Below, piece by piece: positions 1-35,367 of a stretch of DNA of 40,207 nt (its first letter is position 1; each line of letters opens with the position of its first letter). The notes below the pieces were generated by a model. It ran no database searches, was not told where the DNA came from, and was given only the letters and a program-made list of their open reading frames with translations. A program made the translations under genes and the position numbers. The stretch is from an uncultured Candidatus Saccharibacteria bacterium. Lineage in GTDB: Bacteria > Patescibacteriota > Saccharimonadia > Saccharimonadales > JAUPVS01. Location of the stretch: the NCBI GenBank assembly GCA_964410185.1, contig CAYPFM010000002.1:200047-240253 (forward strand). Direction: 5' to 3'.

Positions 1-1389
1 GAAACCACCGATGGCTCAACCGTCACGGCCTTTGCCTTGAACCTGATGGAAGACGAAATCGGTACGGTTATTTTGGGTGAAGACACGCTGGTGAAGGCCG
101 GTGCCAAAGCTCGTTTGACTGGTAAGGTTTTGGAAGTTCCGGTCGGTCCAGAACTGATTGGTCGCGTGGTTGACCCGCTTGGCCGCCCACTCGACGACAA
201 GGGTCCAATCAAGACTCGTCACACTGGTTTGGTAGAAAAAGCTGCCCCCGGTGTTTTGGATCGCAAATCTGTCCATGAACCACTGATGACCGGTATTATG
301 GCCATCGACGGCATGGTACCAATCGGTCGTGGCCAGCGTGAGTTGATTATTGGTGACCGCCAAACTGGTAAAACTGCCATTGCTATCGACACCATGATCA
401 ACCAGCACCAACAAGGTACTGGTGTGATTAACATCTACGTCGCCGTTGGTCAGAAGCTGTCTAAGGTTGCTCGTATGATTGAGCGCCTCAAGCGCGAAGG
501 TGTGATGGATCAAACCATCGTGATCGCCACCAGCGCCTCAGACCCTGCTTCCCTGCAGTACTTGGCACCTTACGCCGGTACCGCCATGGGCGAATACTTC
601 CGCGATAACAGCCAGCACGCGCTGATAATTTATGATGATTTAACCAAACACGCCGCCGCCTATCGCCAGATGTCACTATTGCTGCGCCGCCCACCGGGCC
701 GTGAAGCCTACCCAGGTGACGTCTTCTACCTGCACTCCCGCCTCTTGGAGCGTTCCGCTAAGTTGTCCGACGAAAAAGGTGCCGGTTCCCTAACCGCCCT
801 GCCAATCATCGAAACTCAGGCCGGTGATATTAGTGCCTACATCCCAACCAACGTTATTTCCATCACCGACGGTCAGATCTTTATGGAAACCAGCTTGTTC
901 TACCAAGGTATTCGCCCGGCTATTTCGGTTGGTTTGTCGGTCTCACGTGTGGGTGGCTCGGCCCAAACCAAGGCTGTGAAGTCGGTGGCTGGAACCTTGC
1001 GTCTGAGCCTGGCCCAGTTCCGCGAATTGGCCGCTTTTGCCCAGTTCTCAACCGACCTCGATAGCGAAACCAAGCAGCGCATTAGCCGCGGTCAGCGCTT
1101 GACTGAATTGCTCAAGCAACCACAGTTCTCACCAATGAGTGTCTGGGAACAAACGGCCGCCTTGATGGCGACTACCAACGGCGCCTTTGACCATGTTCCC
1201 GTTGAAAAGATTAAAGATGCTGAAAAAGCCTTACTGACTCGCCTGCACTCTAGCAACCGCAAGGAAATGACCGAGCTGGACAAGGGCGACAAGCCATCCG
1301 ACAAGACCAAAGACCTGATCATTAAAGCTGCCGAACAGGTGGCCAAGAGTTATCATGCCGAAAAGCCCAAAGAGGAAGCAAAGGCCTAA
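1..1389 (+). CDS. atpA: F0F1 ATP synthase subunit alpha (5' partial, open to window edge)
   Basis: Frame 1 is open from nt 1 with no upstream stop. Walker A GDRQTGKT is present and the sequence is F1-alpha-like throughout ([27 protein letters not shown]). Stop is TAA 1387-1389. Confidence 0.95.
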
Positions 1390-29352: not shown

Positions 29353-29844
29353 TTAGAGCTGAATATCGGACAGTACAGCGTCAGGACCGTGCAAATCCTG
29401 CAACAAACCACAAAATAATTCCAGGCTGAGGCTGTCCTGAATGAGGGCCGCGGCAGGTTCTGACCGTTCGCGCTGCTCTTGTAGCGCGGCAGCCGAAACG
29501 TCCCTAATCCGATAGCGAGGTTCACCCGAAGCTCGAGCTGCCTCTTGGACGTGAGCAATGTCGACGACGTAGTGATAGTCATCGTCTTTGTATATAGCGA
29601 CAACGCGGGCCAGTTCGGCCAGGTTATAGCCAGCTTGGGTGACTTCATCTTCGCTCACCACTGGGTAGGTTCCGTCAATGTGCAACTCACCAGTATGTGG
29701 GTCGGCCCAAAGGGCATGCAGGTCGAGGTAGCTGTTTTCGCCCGGCGCAAGATCACAAACGTAGCGATATTGCATATCAACTTCTTCTTCGGGGATGACG
29801 TATGGTTCGGGCGTAAGTTCACCAGTTAAGATATCTAGTGGCAT
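29353..29844 (-). CDS. hypothetical acidic 163-aa protein
   Basis: Clean ORF located 18 nt upstream of rarA on the same strand. No recognisable motif. Confidence 0.6.
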   Translation of the reverse strand: MPLDILTGELTPEPYVIPEEEVDMQYRYVCDLAPGENSYLDLHALWADPHTGELHIDGTYPVVSEDEVTQAGYNLAELARVVAIYKDDDYHYVVDIAHVQEAARASGEPRYRIRDVSAAALQEQRERSEPAAALIQDSLSLELFCGLLQDLHGPDAVLSDIQL

Positions 29845-31679: not shown

Positions 31680-32675
31680 ATGAGTAACAACTCAGATTCA
31701 CTACTTTCTATTGTTGTGCCGGTCTATAACGAAGCGGCTGGCTTAGTGGACTTTCAGGACAGTCTTCTGCAAGCGATAACGACTGCGCAGGTGGCCGATT
31801 ACGAAGTTATTTATGTCAATGATGGCAGTACCGATCAGACTACGGAAGTTGTTGCTCAGTTATGCGGTGAAGATGCAAAAACTCGCCTGATTAGTTTGTC
31901 TCGTAACTTTGGTAAGGAAAATGCCCTCTCTGCCGGCCTGGCCGAGGCCAAGGGCGACGCCATCATCACTATTGACGGTGATGGCCAGCACCCACCCGAA
32001 CTGATTCCTGACTTTGTAGAAGCTTGGCGCAATGGCGCCCAGGTGGTGGTTGGCGTGAGGGATGGCAGCGGCTCGGTATCGACCTGGAAGAATTTTCAAT
32101 CACGGATATTTTACAAAATTTTCAATCGCCTATCGGAACAAAAACTTATTCCTGGTTCAACCGACTTTCGTTTAATTGATAAGTGCGTACAGACGGCCTT
32201 TTTGCAATTAACTGAAACCGACCGAATTACCCGTGGCTTAATTGATTGGTTGGGTTTTAAACGACAGATTATTGTCTTTCGGCCGCAACCACGCCAACAC
32301 GGACAGGCCGCCTACAGCCAACGTAAACTTATGATTCTTGCGGTTAACAGCTTTGTTTCACTGACCCGTACGCCCCTATACCTTTTCGGCTATCTAGGGC
32401 TGATAATTACGACACTGTCTTTTGTGCTCGGAGTAACTGTTTTCTTCGAGCAGCTCATTTTGAATGATCCGCTCAACTGGGGCTTCACCGGTACAGCAAT
32501 GTTGGGCATATTGATTCTGTTCTTGGTTGGTATCATTTTACTTTCTCAGGGTATCTTGTCACTCTATATTTCCCTGTTGCATAATCAGAGTAAACAGCGC
32601 CCACTCTACGTCATTGATTACAAAGCCTCGGTAGGCATTAAACAAACTCCACATGGCCACAAGCAAAAAGACTAA
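31680..32675 (+). CDS. GT2 polyprenyl-phosphate glycosyltransferase (GtrB/CsbB/ArnC-like) with two C-terminal TM helices
   Basis: Motifs SIVVPVYNE, VNDGSTD, SRNFGKENA and TIDGDGQHPPE, followed by two C-terminal hydrophobic helices. Confidence 0.88.
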   Translation: MSNNSDSLLSIVVPVYNEAAGLVDFQDSLLQAITTAQVADYEVIYVNDGSTDQTTEVVAQLCGEDAKTRLISLSRNFGKENALSAGLAEAKGDAIITIDGDGQHPPELIPDFVEAWRNGAQVVVGVRDGSGSVSTWKNFQSRIFYKIFNRLSEQKLIPGSTDFRLIDKCVQTAFLQLTETDRITRGLIDWLGFKRQIIVFRPQPRQHGQAAYSQRKLMILAVNSFVSLTRTPLYLFGYLGLIITTLSFVLGVTVFFEQLILNDPLNWGFTGTAMLGILILFLVGIILLSQGILSLYISLLHNQSKQRPLYVIDYKASVGIKQTPHGHKQKD

Positions 32676-35367
32676 AGCAAACACCAAACCCAAGCCAACT
32701 GCTGCCAAAAAGCCGGTTTCAAAAAAACCAGCAGCCAAGCCGGTTAAAAAGACGCCTACTCAAGCCAAAAAGGTCCAGCCCAAAAAAAATCAATCCAAAA
32801 AAACTGTTGCCAAGACGCCTAAGTGGTATCTTTCGGTTAGGTTTAGTCGGGTGTATGCCGGTTGTTCGTTGGTCATACTGCTCCTGACCACAACGCTGTG
32901 GGCAACACTGAGCGCGCGTTTGCAGCAGAGTAATGCCGACCAGCTGGTTAATAGTTATCTTTTTGAGAATGCCAACACCTTTCATAAGTCGCTCCTCCCT
33001 GGTCAACACAGCTTTCTTCTGAAGTGGCCGGTTTTTTGGTTAATTCATGCGTTTGGTACCCACGGCGCGGCGCTAATTGGTTTCACGACGTTTGTTACGT
33101 TACTGTCGGTCGGTTTATTCGCCCTGCTTTTGTACGCCGTCGATAGACGCCCACTGGCATTTGGTACGCTCTGCCTGGCACTAGCATCAGTTCTGTTGGC
33201 TATCCCAGCGCAGCCATATGCTGGAGCGCTACTGCCGCTCAACATGGCAATGCTCGCCACCAGAAACATCGAGTACATCCTCTACATTGCTGGATTGCTG
33301 CTGGTTATCCGCTGGCATGAGGTTAAGAGTTTTGGCTTCTGGTTGGCTGTCCTTTGCTTTGGACTGGTTATGGCCAGCGATCAGTTGTTTTTGACGCTGA
33401 GTGCTGGTGGCGCGCTGTTGGCAATACTAACCTACGCATTTACGCGTCGCTGGAAGCTGACCCAGCTAACTGTAAAATGGCTTTTGGCGACTGTTTTTGG
33501 GGGCTTACTGGCTGGCGTGGTTATCTGGGCGATCGCGCACTATGGCGTGGCCGGCGTCTCCAGCTCTGCTTCGGTACTTTATGGTTTACAACGCAGTCCT
33601 CAAGGGCTGGCCTTGGGCTTGATTTACGCGGTTCTAGGTCTGGCCAGCAACTTTGGTGCCAACCCTGCATACGACGGGACCGTTCTACGTCAGGTTCCTC
33701 ATCTGTTAGCCAGTCGCCTATTCAACGTTGGTGGCTTCAGTTTTATCACCAACGCCACCGTGTTCTTGGTGGCCTTGTTTGCGGCTGTGAAACAAGTGCT
33801 CTTTAGCATACTTCCTCGGGGCAAACACACCTACCCAGAGGACTGGGTATCAAAGCTGACACTACTGTTGATGTGGACGACGCTGGCGGCGGTTGGGGCC
33901 TTTATTGTCACCGACCACTACTATGCTGTTGATGCTCGTTACCTGACCATCAGCCTATTTGCCTTGTTTGTGGCCCTGGCCGCTTACGCACGCCAAAAAG
34001 AATGGGCACCGCAGCGTATCTTTGCCGTTGGGGCGGTTTTGTTGGTAAGCATCGGGCTCGGTTGTCTCTTTGCCATCACGACCTACCAGCATCAAGCCAA
34101 GGCACTTAAAGAAACCAATGACCGTAACTCTTTAATCGCCCAGGCGCTCACCTACCATCCGGTTGACGTACTGGCTGGCGATTACTGGCGAGTCATCCCT
34201 ACCAAGCAAGCATCGAAGACCACGCTTAATGTACTACCGTTGGCAACGTGCTTGCAGCCAAGGGAAGTTCTGAGCAGCCAAGCCTGGCAACCAGACCTAC
34301 AAAAAACACGTTTTGCCTACCTACTTTCGCTTGATAAAAGCTTGACCGATTATCCGACCTGTACCTTGGATCAGGCCGTAACAGCATATGGTCGCCCGAA
34401 TGCCAGTGCTGTCATCGCTGGAACGCTAGAAAATCCCAAGGAAGTGCTGCTCTTTTATGACAAGGGTGCTCGCCAAAGTTCGCCGGCCATCAATGCTGCC
34501 GCCAAGCCGCCAGCCACCGTGGTGCCAATTGCCATTGACCAATTGCCGAATACAACTTGTACTGGTTTCTCGGTTATGAACATTGTCGCTCACGAAGATG
34601 ACGATTTGTTATTTATGAATCCAGACGTGTCACGCGACATCAGAGCTGGCCACTGTGTACGCACGGTCTATGTAACGGCCGGAGATGCCGGTAGCAACGA
34701 GTTCTACTGGTTGTCACGCGAGCAAGGCTCCGAAGCCGCCTATTCCAAGATGATCGGCGAAGAAAATGCCTTGTGGGTACAACGGGTTGTCAAGCTTGCC
34801 GACAAGGCTTATATCACCGTCGCAAACCCTAAGAACAACCCCCGCATCAGCCTGATTTTTATGCGTTTGCCGGATGGTAATATGCGCGGCCAGGGCTTTA
34901 GTAGTTCCAATCACGAAAGTCTCGAACAACTCAGTTATGGTCAGGTACCGAGTATCCGGACTGTTACCAACCAGTCCGACTATAGTGCCCATCAGCTGAC
35001 GAACGCCCTCACTACACTGATGCAAACCTATCAACCAAGCGAAATTCGCACCCAGGCAGATGTGGTCGGGCATGAGTTTCCTGACCACAGCGACCACCGG
35101 GCGGTCGGTCGCTTTACCGTCCTTGCCTACGAGCAGTACGAGCAAAGACAATTTGAAAATAAAGTCACTATTCCCTTCCGAAAGTATCTGGGCTACCCTG
35201 TTCGCGATCGCCAACAGAACGTGTTTGGGGAGGATCTGACACAAAAAGAAGCCGCATTCTTGGCGTATGCTGCTTTTGACGGCGGCGTCTGCCAGAATGC
35301 GGCTCAGTGTAATCGAACCTCTACGTACGACGGCTACCTAAAGCGTCAGTACGAATTTGGAAACTAG
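32653..35367 (+). CDS. fusion protein: Lys/Pro/Ala-rich N-terminal tail + ~13-14-TM GT-C-like membrane domain + C-terminal PIG-L/LmbE-family de-N-acetylase domain
   Basis: There are 20 Lys in the first 57 residues, then many hydrophobic helices up to about residue 500. PIG-L motifs are VAHEDDDLLFMNPD, VYVTAGDAG and HSDHRAVG. The start overlaps the GT2 gene by 23 nt. Confidence 0.8.
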   Translation: MATSKKTKANTKPKPTAAKKPVSKKPAAKPVKKTPTQAKKVQPKKNQSKKTVAKTPKWYLSVRFSRVYAGCSLVILLLTTTLWATLSARLQQSNADQLVNSYLFENANTFHKSLLPGQHSFLLKWPVFWLIHAFGTHGAALIGFTTFVTLLSVGLFALLLYAVDRRPLAFGTLCLALASVLLAIPAQPYAGALLPLNMAMLATRNIEYILYIAGLLLVIRWHEVKSFGFWLAVLCFGLVMASDQLFLTLSAGGALLAILTYAFTRRWKLTQLTVKWLLATVFGGLLAGVVIWAIAHYGVAGVSSSASVLYGLQRSPQGLALGLIYAVLGLASNFGANPAYDGTVLRQVPHLLASRLFNVGGFSFITNATVFLVALFAAVKQVLFSILPRGKHTYPEDWVSKLTLLLMWTTLAAVGAFIVTDHYYAVDARYLTISLFALFVALAAYARQKEWAPQRIFAVGAVLLVSIGLGCLFAITTYQHQAKALKETNDRNSLIAQALTYHPVDVLAGDYWRVIPTKQASKTTLNVLPLATCLQPREVLSSQAWQPDLQKTRFAYLLSLDKSLTDYPTCTLDQAVTAYGRPNASAVIAGTLENPKEVLLFYDKGARQSSPAINAAAKPPATVVPIAIDQLPNTTCTGFSVMNIVAHEDDDLLFMNPDVSRDIRAGHCVRTVYVTAGDAGSNEFYWLSREQGSEAAYSKMIGEENALWVQRVVKLADKAYITVANPKNNPRISLIFMRLPDGNMRGQGFSSSNHESLEQLSYGQVPSIRTVTNQSDYSAHQLTNALTTLMQTYQPSEIRTQADVVGHEFPDHSDHRAVGRFTVLAYEQYEQRQFENKVTIPFRKYLGYPVRDRQQNVFGEDLTQKEAAFLAYAAFDGGVCQNAAQCNRTSTYDGYLKRQYEFGN

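Follow-up and report, generated by a model that had tools for sequence, protein, structure and literature searches.

What does a zinc-dependent de-N-acetylase do at the end of a polytopic membrane protein encoded next to a synthase of lipid-linked sugars? This question is raised by two adjacent genes in the 40,207-nucleotide (nt) stretch of DNA that was analysed here at its full length (the window), from contig CAYPFM010000002.1 of an uncultured Candidatus Saccharibacteria bacterium with a 1.09-Mb, 97% complete genome. The upstream gene encodes a 331-amino-acid (aa) family 2 glycosyltransferase (GT2), and the downstream gene a 904-aa protein, labelled simply "PIG-L family deacetylase" in the database, in which a membrane domain is fused to a PIG-L/LmbE domain (Table 1). 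The two open reading frames (ORFs) share 23 nt at their junction, as a preliminary description of this DNA had reported along with their lengths; a 102-bp spacer and a divergent ABC-F gene lie upstream, a small convergent gene lies downstream, and the pair probably forms a translationally coupled two-gene unit. The likely answer, in our view, is that this is a two-gene operon for surface glycosylation of the Gtr-type three-component kind, in which the last enzyme is bifunctional and joins sugar transfer to on-site de-N-acetylation.

The 331-aa protein matched Pfam PF00535 (Glycos_transf_2) over aa 10–159 (E = 7.4e-33), carries a DxD-type motif (...ITIDGDGQHPP...), and aligned with the solved GtrB homologue sll0501 (5EKP; aa 3–313 to 22–327, E = 1.6e-62) and with ArnC structures (aa 9–313, E = 1.5e-30). 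Since this Pfam match is combined with full-length collinearity with GtrB and ArnC and with two C-terminal transmembrane (TM) helices, the protein is, judging from its sequence, a GtrB/CsbB/ArnC-type polyprenyl-phosphate glycosyltransferase, in agreement with the signature and the two helices noted in the preliminary description. Among NCBIfam models, PgfS was the best match (full length, E = 2.5e-70, 237 bits against an equivalog cut-off of 500), ArnC was also matched at full length (E = 2.6e-39, 135 bits against 529), and the match to PpgS was weak (E = 4e-9, 36 bits against 370).

In the 904-aa protein, three independent lines of evidence identify the membrane domain as a distant GT-C glycosyltransferase: fold matches, profile–profile homology and conserved residues, among them an acidic one just after TM1; transferase activity is predicted. 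In a Foldseek search with a model of this domain only, all matches with a probability of at least 0.9 were GT-C enzymes (PglB, AftA, ArnT, DPY19, STT3, Pmt4 and EmbA/B; E = 2.4e-4 for PglB and 2.8e-3 for AftA); transporters, channels and other non-GT-C folds had probabilities of 0.28 or lower, with template-modelling scores (TM-scores) near 0.1 for transporters and channels. When the family alignment (A2) was compared by hhalign with 22 PMT_2 (ArnT-type) proteins from other Saccharimonadia genomes, the two were aligned from the second half of the first outer loop to TM7 with a probability of 96.3% (E = 1.9e-9, 187 columns), against 23–25% in controls in which either alignment was reversed. The preliminary description had called this domain GT-C from topology alone, and both comparisons bear out that call over a transporter fold.

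GT-C enzymes carry a catalytic acidic motif directly after TM1. Here, N94 and D96, just past TM1 (aa 62–91), show no variation among 68 homologues or across 57 genomes, and an extended hhalign alignment places NADQ within 1–2 positions of the PMT_2 "dE" motif, in a low-confidence region. The first outer loop (aa 92–137, with helices at 95–102, 107–111 and 122–133) also contains invariant H119, K124 and P126, and further invariant residues are R204, N205, E207, Y208, D243, NFGANP (333–338), H422, D427, R429 and Y430; the domain has about 20 invariant polar residues, and the TM-plus-middle regions of the 57 genomes are 27–64% identical to that of the window. The 904-aa protein gave no match to the Pfam PMT_2 model (PF13231) at E up to 0.1, nor did relatives that consist of the GT-C part alone at E up to 1; the domain is thus a distant relative rather than a curated member of PMT_2. 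Searches against sequences of solved structures with the whole protein, its PIG-L part and the A1 and A2 profiles returned no useful match. We discarded as spurious an NCBIfam hit to a B-4DMT transporter, which spans 35 residues and scores 16 bits where the cut-off is 100 (E = 0.0066), and as chance matches EPSP synthase and S1P receptor in the PDB (E = 0.5–1.6).

The C-terminal part matched Pfam PF02585 over aa 642–825 (E = 1.9e-13; 51.5 bits against a gathering cut-off of 28.2). It contains the motifs AHEDDD (646–651), TAGDAG (675–680) and HSDH (812–815), so that the complete PIG-L domain that had been read from these motifs is confirmed. H647-E-D649-D650 and H812-S-D814-H815 are invariant among the 57 genomes, and the key residues of the motifs are invariant in the 68 homologues as well, which establishes the conservation in orthologues that the preliminary description had left to be checked; C636, C668, C880 and C886 are also invariant in this domain. 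Foldseek matched the PIG-L part with BC1534/BshB, MshB, TT1542 and the diacetylchitobiose and teicoplanin deacetylases (E = 7e-6 to 1e-3; entries 2IXD, 1Q74, 1UAN, 4XM2 and 6P2T, E = 7e-6 to 3e-4), with TM-scores of up to 0.62 on the target, and a comparison with the sequences of solved LmbE members gave no detectable match. The LmbE superfamily is defined by an HxD1D2 plus H metal-binding/general-base motif, with a reported ligand spacer of 97–148 residues (PMC4101496); the spacer in the fusion family, 162–165 residues, exceeds this range.

Between the two catalytic parts, the preliminary description had placed a linker of roughly 140 aa. Instead, a full-length AlphaFold2 (AF2) model built on the 68 homologues (mean predicted local distance difference test score, pLDDT, 87.5; predicted template-modelling score, pTM, 0.83) and a model of aa 55–635 (pLDDT 89.6, pTM 0.89) contain here a folded, conserved alpha/beta domain, not a linker, as judged from its pLDDT of about 90, its alpha/beta pattern and five invariant residues (G509, Y511, W512, C533 and C570). 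What is left of the linker is some ten low-confidence residues (aa 611–620), which are disordered also in the model without PIG-L. The middle domain occupies the position of the periplasmic C-terminal domain in ArnT, PglB and AftA. At the other end of the protein, the lysine-rich tail is a family-wide trait, with a mean of 10.7 lysine and arginine (K+R) residues in the 68 homologues.

Table 1. Coordinates of the gene pair, of its protein domains and of related features elsewhere (positions are those of the window unless a locus or contig is named)
Feature	Residues	Position	Strand	Basis or remark
GT2 gene	331 aa	31680-32675	+	ORF list
GT-A (GT2) cytoplasmic domain of the GT2 protein	~9-230			
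Two C-terminal TM helices of the GT2 protein	238-256, 275-293			
GT-C/PIG-L fusion gene	904 aa	32653-35367	+	ORF list
Disordered Lys/Pro/Ala-rich cytoplasmic tail	1-57	32653-32823	+	20 K+R, no aspartate or glutamate; pLDDT <50
GT-C-fold membrane domain	62-475	32836-34077	+	AF2 pLDDT 87-90; Foldseek; hhalign; invariant residues
Stalk helix and alpha/beta middle domain	476-501 and ~502-605	34078-34467	+	pLDDT ~90; conservation
Short connector	606-635	34468-34557	+	Low confidence limited to ~aa 611-620 (pLDDT 63, full-length model)
PIG-L/LmbE zinc de-N-acetylase domain, predicted extracytoplasmic	636-904	34558-35367	+	Pfam PF02585; Foldseek; invariant motif
Anchored outer-half protein, first example	~500 aa	L090:628-2136	-	Lys-rich tail, one TM helix, part of middle domain, PIG-L
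Anchored outer-half protein, second example	~500 aa	L092:1390-2901	+	Lys-rich tail, one TM helix, part of middle domain, PIG-L
Wzx/Wzy-type polysaccharide cluster with both GtrA genes and a GT2 gene beside it		C1:198422-218000		Loci L003 and L004
Second GtrB-like GT2 gene, beside this cluster		C1:198422-199369		E 3.4e-88 to the window's GT2

The 904-aa protein has 11–13 TM helices, fewer than the 13–14 of the preliminary description. Across the 68 homologues, loops rich in K+R alternate in a way that fits an N-in/C-out arrangement: from a cytoplasmic N-terminus, the chain would cross the membrane in seven core helices, form an extended outer region (aa 297–360) that includes the NFGANP motif and two helices of weak hydrophobicity, and pass through four more helices to a C-terminus outside. 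The C-terminal half has six invariant cysteines. Within the PIG-L subfamily of the fusion, proteins that stand alone begin with a signal peptide or a single N-in anchor and keep the cysteine before VAHxDDD; they come from Arthrobacter and other Actinomycetes, from Thermoleophilia, from a gammaproteobacterial metagenome-assembled genome (MAG), and from Yonathbacteria and Roizmanbacteria. In many of them, PIG-L is followed by DUF7402/discoidin, PA14, PKD or fn3 domains of the kind usual in secreted enzymes that act on glycans. Based on these secreted and anchored relatives, the positive-inside pattern and the six invariant cysteines, the middle and PIG-L domains most likely face outward.

The subfamily represented by loci L074–L085 is thus apparently an extracellular branch of the LmbE superfamily, as far as its sequences tell; secreted multidomain examples include L079:4791-9503, L083:6319-9477 and L080:4878-6206. 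Its Actinomycete carriers include Arthrobacter ginsengisoli, and CPR bacteria other than Saccharibacteria have it as well. We found no account of such a branch in the literature. To our knowledge, the characterised LmbE/PIG-L members are soluble intracellular enzymes, a location from which the clade of the fusion, with its predicted C-out topology, would depart. A 2014 review of the LmbE enzymes is silent on location, and the words "extracellular" and "secreted" are absent from it (PMC4101496). The single-anchor proteins of Table 1 (L090 and L092) resemble the outer half of the fusion on an anchor of its own, and the Lys-rich tail is present on anchored PIG-L proteins too.

We compared the gene order in 62 fusion-carrying loci including the window (L050 being reassigned), 55 of which have readable upstream sequence. 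A GtrB-like GT2 gene lies directly upstream of the fusion in 43 of the 55, mostly together with GtrA, so the synteny that had been expected in relatives is present. The arrangement GT2, GtrA, fusion was the most frequent (28 loci), and the arrangement of the window, GT2 followed by the fusion, was found in 11; in four loci GT2 is followed by a large protein with GtrA fused to its N-terminus, in seven GtrA precedes the fusion, and in five the fusion stands alone. This synteny with the GtrB-type synthase and GtrA, which in places extends to fusion, supports the prediction that the GT-C domain uses a lipid-linked donor and transfers its sugar to an acceptor.

The preliminary description had also remarked that no GtrA-like flippase gene is adjacent. 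This is true of the window, in which no GtrA gene was found next to the pair or elsewhere, but GtrA is present in cis in 39 of the 55 loci (28 as a separate gene, 4 fused and 7 without GT2), and the genome itself has two GtrA genes, both on contig C1. These belong to a polysaccharide cluster (Table 1) that encodes a Polysacc_synt flippase, two GT4 enzymes, guanosine diphosphate (GDP)-mannose pathway genes, a Bac_transf initiating transferase and a Wzy_C protein, and this cluster is a candidate source of both the flippase and the acceptor glycan for the system in the window. Similarly, eight of nine other genomes without GtrA in the cassette have 2–4 GtrA genes elsewhere. On a tree of the fusion proteins, in which the window and its relative L005 are grouped with 100% support, the GtrA-less state requires nine changes, at least five of which are forced by well-supported branches; a single loss of GtrA is thereby ruled out. 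These changes and the GtrA genes elsewhere in GtrA-less genomes point to repeated loss from a cassette of which GtrA was an ancestral part, and in the present genome GtrA is plausibly supplied in trans.

A profile search with the TM-plus-middle region, in which the best 150 matches were inspected, showed that this module is a compact family (442 representatives at 50% clustering) that also occurs without PIG-L, in proteins of about 550 aa and in GtrA–GT-C fusions of about 690 aa. One such GT2–GtrA–GT-C cassette (L087) adjoins genes for GlmS, an acetyltransferase and a nucleotidyltransferase, and the cassette of a further relative (L006) adjoins Wzm/Wzt polysaccharide export and nucleotide-sugar genes. 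Conversely, two GT2–GtrA cassettes (L072 and L081) have a short membrane-anchored PIG-L gene in place of the GT-C gene, and the genome of L072 also encodes a GT-C on its own and, separately, a membrane-anchored protein of middle domain plus PIG-L. The split, fused and reduced arrangements therefore show the components to be modular yet persistently linked.

In the bifunctional system that we propose, the GT2 would move an N-acetylhexosamine (HexNAc) from a uridine diphosphate-sugar to undecaprenyl phosphate at the cytoplasmic face, as is suggested by its family. A GtrA-type protein, in this genome presumably the product of one of the two GtrA genes acting in trans, would flip the lipid-linked sugar. 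The N-in/C-out GT-C domain, with D96 as its putative catalytic base, would then transfer the sugar to an envelope acceptor, most likely a wall- or membrane-linked polysaccharide, and the PIG-L domain, held beside the transferase by the middle domain, would strip off the N-acetyl group to yield a cationic amino sugar at the surface. Which sugar is used, what accepts it and in which order the last two reactions run are inferences; deacetylation after transfer is slightly favoured, because the middle domain travels with PIG-L, because secreted relatives carry glycan-type domains and because GT-C-only cassettes exist without a deacetylase. An interpretation of this kind had been offered in the preliminary description, and overall it is supported: the membrane domain has a GT-C rather than a transporter fold, the catalytic residues of PIG-L are conserved, and the two genes are syntenic in relatives.

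Several points weigh against this proposal. The simple count of hydrophobic helices is 12, which would put the C-terminus inside, and the C-out layout requires the helix at aa 316–333 to be interfacial or re-entrant; we set the inside placement aside on the grounds of loop charge, secreted or anchored relatives and invariant cysteines. The TM domain has no sequence-model match in Pfam, NCBIfam or the PDB, and its TM-scores to solved GT-C structures (0.40–0.44) indicate likeness at the superfamily level only. The sugar of GtrB-type enzymes is not assignable from sequence, and this GT2 missed the NCBIfam cut-offs for orthology to all three sugar-assigned enzymes (PgfS, ArnC and PpgS), so its specificity cannot be read from its sequence either; the identity of the sugar is deduced solely from the presence of the de-N-acetylase. 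The window contains no genes for acceptor synthesis. A genome of the same genus (G058) and 93% of the sampled species of the class lack the cassette, which therefore does not serve a core function. Finally, every mechanistic step is a prediction from sequence or model.

The reactions might also run in the reverse order, an alternative that we find possible but doubtful: PIG-L would deacetylate the flipped undecaprenyl-phosphate-HexNAc in the outer leaflet, and the GT-C domain would then transfer the free amino sugar. Such editing of the donor would account for the two GT2–GtrA cassettes in which an anchored PIG-L replaces the GT-C, and the Pfam name "GlcNAc-PI de-N-acetylase" indicates a founding activity on lipid-linked N-acetylglucosamine (GlcNAc). 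It would also share its logic with ArnD/ArnT and with the proposed mycobacterial route from polyprenyl-phosphate-linked N-acetylgalactosamine to galactosamine, and the compactness of the full-length model, with so few low-confidence linker residues, would suit a hand-over of substrate. The substrates of characterised superfamily members are glycosides in which GlcNAc is linked to a small aglycone (PMC4101496). The discoidin-, PA14- and PKD-type domains of the secreted PIG-L relatives, however, are typical of polymer-acting enzymes, homologous cassettes exist with the GT-C alone, and the middle domain, at the position of a GT-C periplasmic domain, accompanies PIG-L even in single-anchor proteins; these points weigh against donor editing without deciding the matter. 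Were the donor nevertheless edited, this would be the first PIG-L/LmbE clade to act outside the cytoplasm, converting undecaprenyl-phosphate-HexNAc to the corresponding hexosamine beside an unnamed GT-C, and the first donor editing at the outer face, a claim that we put forward only tentatively.

A different acceptor, namely surface proteins that are O-glycosylated with HexNAc as by streptococcal Pgf or PMT-type enzymes before deacetylation, appears unlikely. PgfS is indeed the best NCBIfam match of the GT2 over its full length, the TM domain is homologous to PMT_2, and Pmt4 is among the fold matches; however, the PgfS score is well under the equivalog cut-off, PMT_2 includes ArnT-like lipid and glycan transferases, and PglB, AftA and ArnT score at least as well as Pmt4. 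Moreover, the cassettes of relatives adjoin polysaccharide export and nucleotide-sugar genes (L006) or amino-sugar genes (L087), and no Ser/Thr-rich candidate substrate gene is adjacent to the pair. Highly improbable is a membrane domain that is no transferase at all but an anchor, a scaffold or something else, with PIG-L as the sole catalyst on pre-existing glycans, either the peptidoglycan of the cell itself or a host bacterium's wall. Such an activity would resemble that of a subfamily whose members stand alone, secreted or anchored, in many bacteria, and it would be compatible with a TM domain that no sequence model matches and whose TM-scores to GT-C structures stay below 0.5; yet it leaves unexplained the invariant polar residues, including the post-TM1 aspartate typical of GT-C, the controlled hhalign link to PMT_2, and the tight synteny, at times fusion, with the GtrB-type synthase and GtrA. 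The TM-plus-middle module is also kept without PIG-L in GT2–GtrA cassettes, and hence a role as a mere anchor for PIG-L is unlikely.

The system that we favour, a Gtr-type cassette with a bifunctional last enzyme, has close parallels in three-component systems: GtrB/GtrA/Gtr(type) of Shigella phages, CsbB/GtcA/YfhO and GtlA/GtcA/GtlB of Firmicutes, and GacI/GacK/GacL of Streptococcus pyogenes (PMC8035078). Shared with these are a GT2 with C-terminal TM helices, a polytopic GT-C that would act outside, and a GtrA-type protein, which the relatives have in the cassette and the present genome would supply in trans; gene order and translational coupling agree. In contrast to them, the GT-C family of the fusion has no Pfam model, a zinc de-N-acetylase sits on its outer C-terminus, and the cassette in the window is without GtrA. 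The words "deacetylase" and "fusion" are both absent from a 2021 review of multi-component glycosylation (PMC8035078). With the ArnC/ArnD/ArnE-F/ArnT pathway, the system shares a GT2 that aligns with ArnC at full length and a membrane domain for which ArnT is a fold match and PMT_2, the Pfam family of ArnT, the hhalign partner; in both, removal of an N-acyl group would put a cationic amino sugar on the envelope, as proposed for the window. ArnD is a separate CE4-type deformylase that works on the cytoplasmic side before flipping, whereas the window encodes a PIG-L-type deacylase that forms one protein with the transferase and is predicted to lie outside.

The PpgS/Rv3632/Rv3779 pathway for arabinogalactan galactosamine likewise combines a polyprenyl-phosphate-HexNAc synthase assisted by a small membrane protein, a GT-C and a necessary de-N-acetylation, through which a wall polysaccharide receives a cationic amino sugar, but the GT2 matches PpgS only weakly. 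The deacetylase of this mycobacterial and corynebacterial pathway is still missing (PMC9671496). Among the deacetylases themselves, MshB, BshB (BC1534), TT1542 and the diacetylchitobiose and teicoplanin enzymes have the same Rossmann-like fold and HxDD plus H zinc motif, and the clade of the fusion differs from these characterised LmbE enzymes in its signal peptides or anchors, its conserved cysteines and its longer ligand spacer. The step proposed for PIG-L, zinc-dependent N-acetyl removal outside the membrane, is also carried out by the CE4 enzymes PgdA, PplD, PgaB and IcaB, which differ in having a (beta/alpha)7 barrel, a D-H-H metal site and no glycosyltransferase fusion. Streptococcal PplD deacetylates wall-bound GlcNAc outside the membrane through a TM-anchored catalytic domain; as a CE4 enzyme, it was dropped as a precedent for an extracellular PIG-L (PMC8807736).

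We found no description of a GT-C/PIG-L fusion in the literature searched. New here are a GT-C family without a Pfam or NCBIfam model, a PIG-L deacylase predicted to lie outside the membrane, and the fusion of transferase and deacylase. Cationic amino sugars alter surface charge, resistance to lysozyme and antimicrobial peptides, phage recognition and adhesion, and the known cases use separate enzymes; if our proposal is true, a single polypeptide unites a transferase of lipid-linked sugars with a deacetylase of a type so far known as intracellular. The setting is ultrasmall bacteria attached to other bacteria, whose surface chemistry has hardly been explored. The split, fused and reduced versions of the family provide a natural set for ordering the two reactions. 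Should the donor be edited, this would be the type of enzyme to seek in pathways whose deacetylase has yet to be found, for example the one that adds galactosamine to the arabinogalactan of mycobacteria and corynebacteria.

Full-length homologues that bear names are annotated as Candidatus Saccharibacteria, Saccharimonadales or Patescibacteria. Within the class, the family was carried by 21 of the 301 sampled species (~7%) and by 18 of 160 genera. So scattered an occurrence suggests surfaces that vary from strain to strain, not a core function. Ordinary PMT_2-type GT-C genes were found in 65 of 81 sampled class genomes, and none above the cut-off in this genus (the present genome and G058). 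The fusion is the sole GT-C-type gene that these searches detected in its own genome, apart from a weak PMT_2-like frame (C5:12738-13193, E = 0.002). In another Saccharimonadia genome, a PMT_2-type GT-C protein (L095:1192-2877, minus strand) has an apparent N-terminal GT2-like segment, seen in the hhalign alignment only. A MAG labelled Bacillota (G005) encodes a 906-aa fusion and a 653-aa GT-C-only paralogue (L070:4602-6563 / L091, L088); in view of its Saccharibacteria-like gene content and its size of 1.4 Mb, it may have been mislabelled through an error of binning or taxonomy. Among relatives whose gene neighbourhood is available, L005 is the closest (~65% identity); there, an MDMPI_N protein and a 243-aa stand-alone PIG-L are encoded between rarA and the ABC-F gene (L005:1796-3096), and at the corresponding place the window has a single 163-aa acidic ORF (29353-29844).

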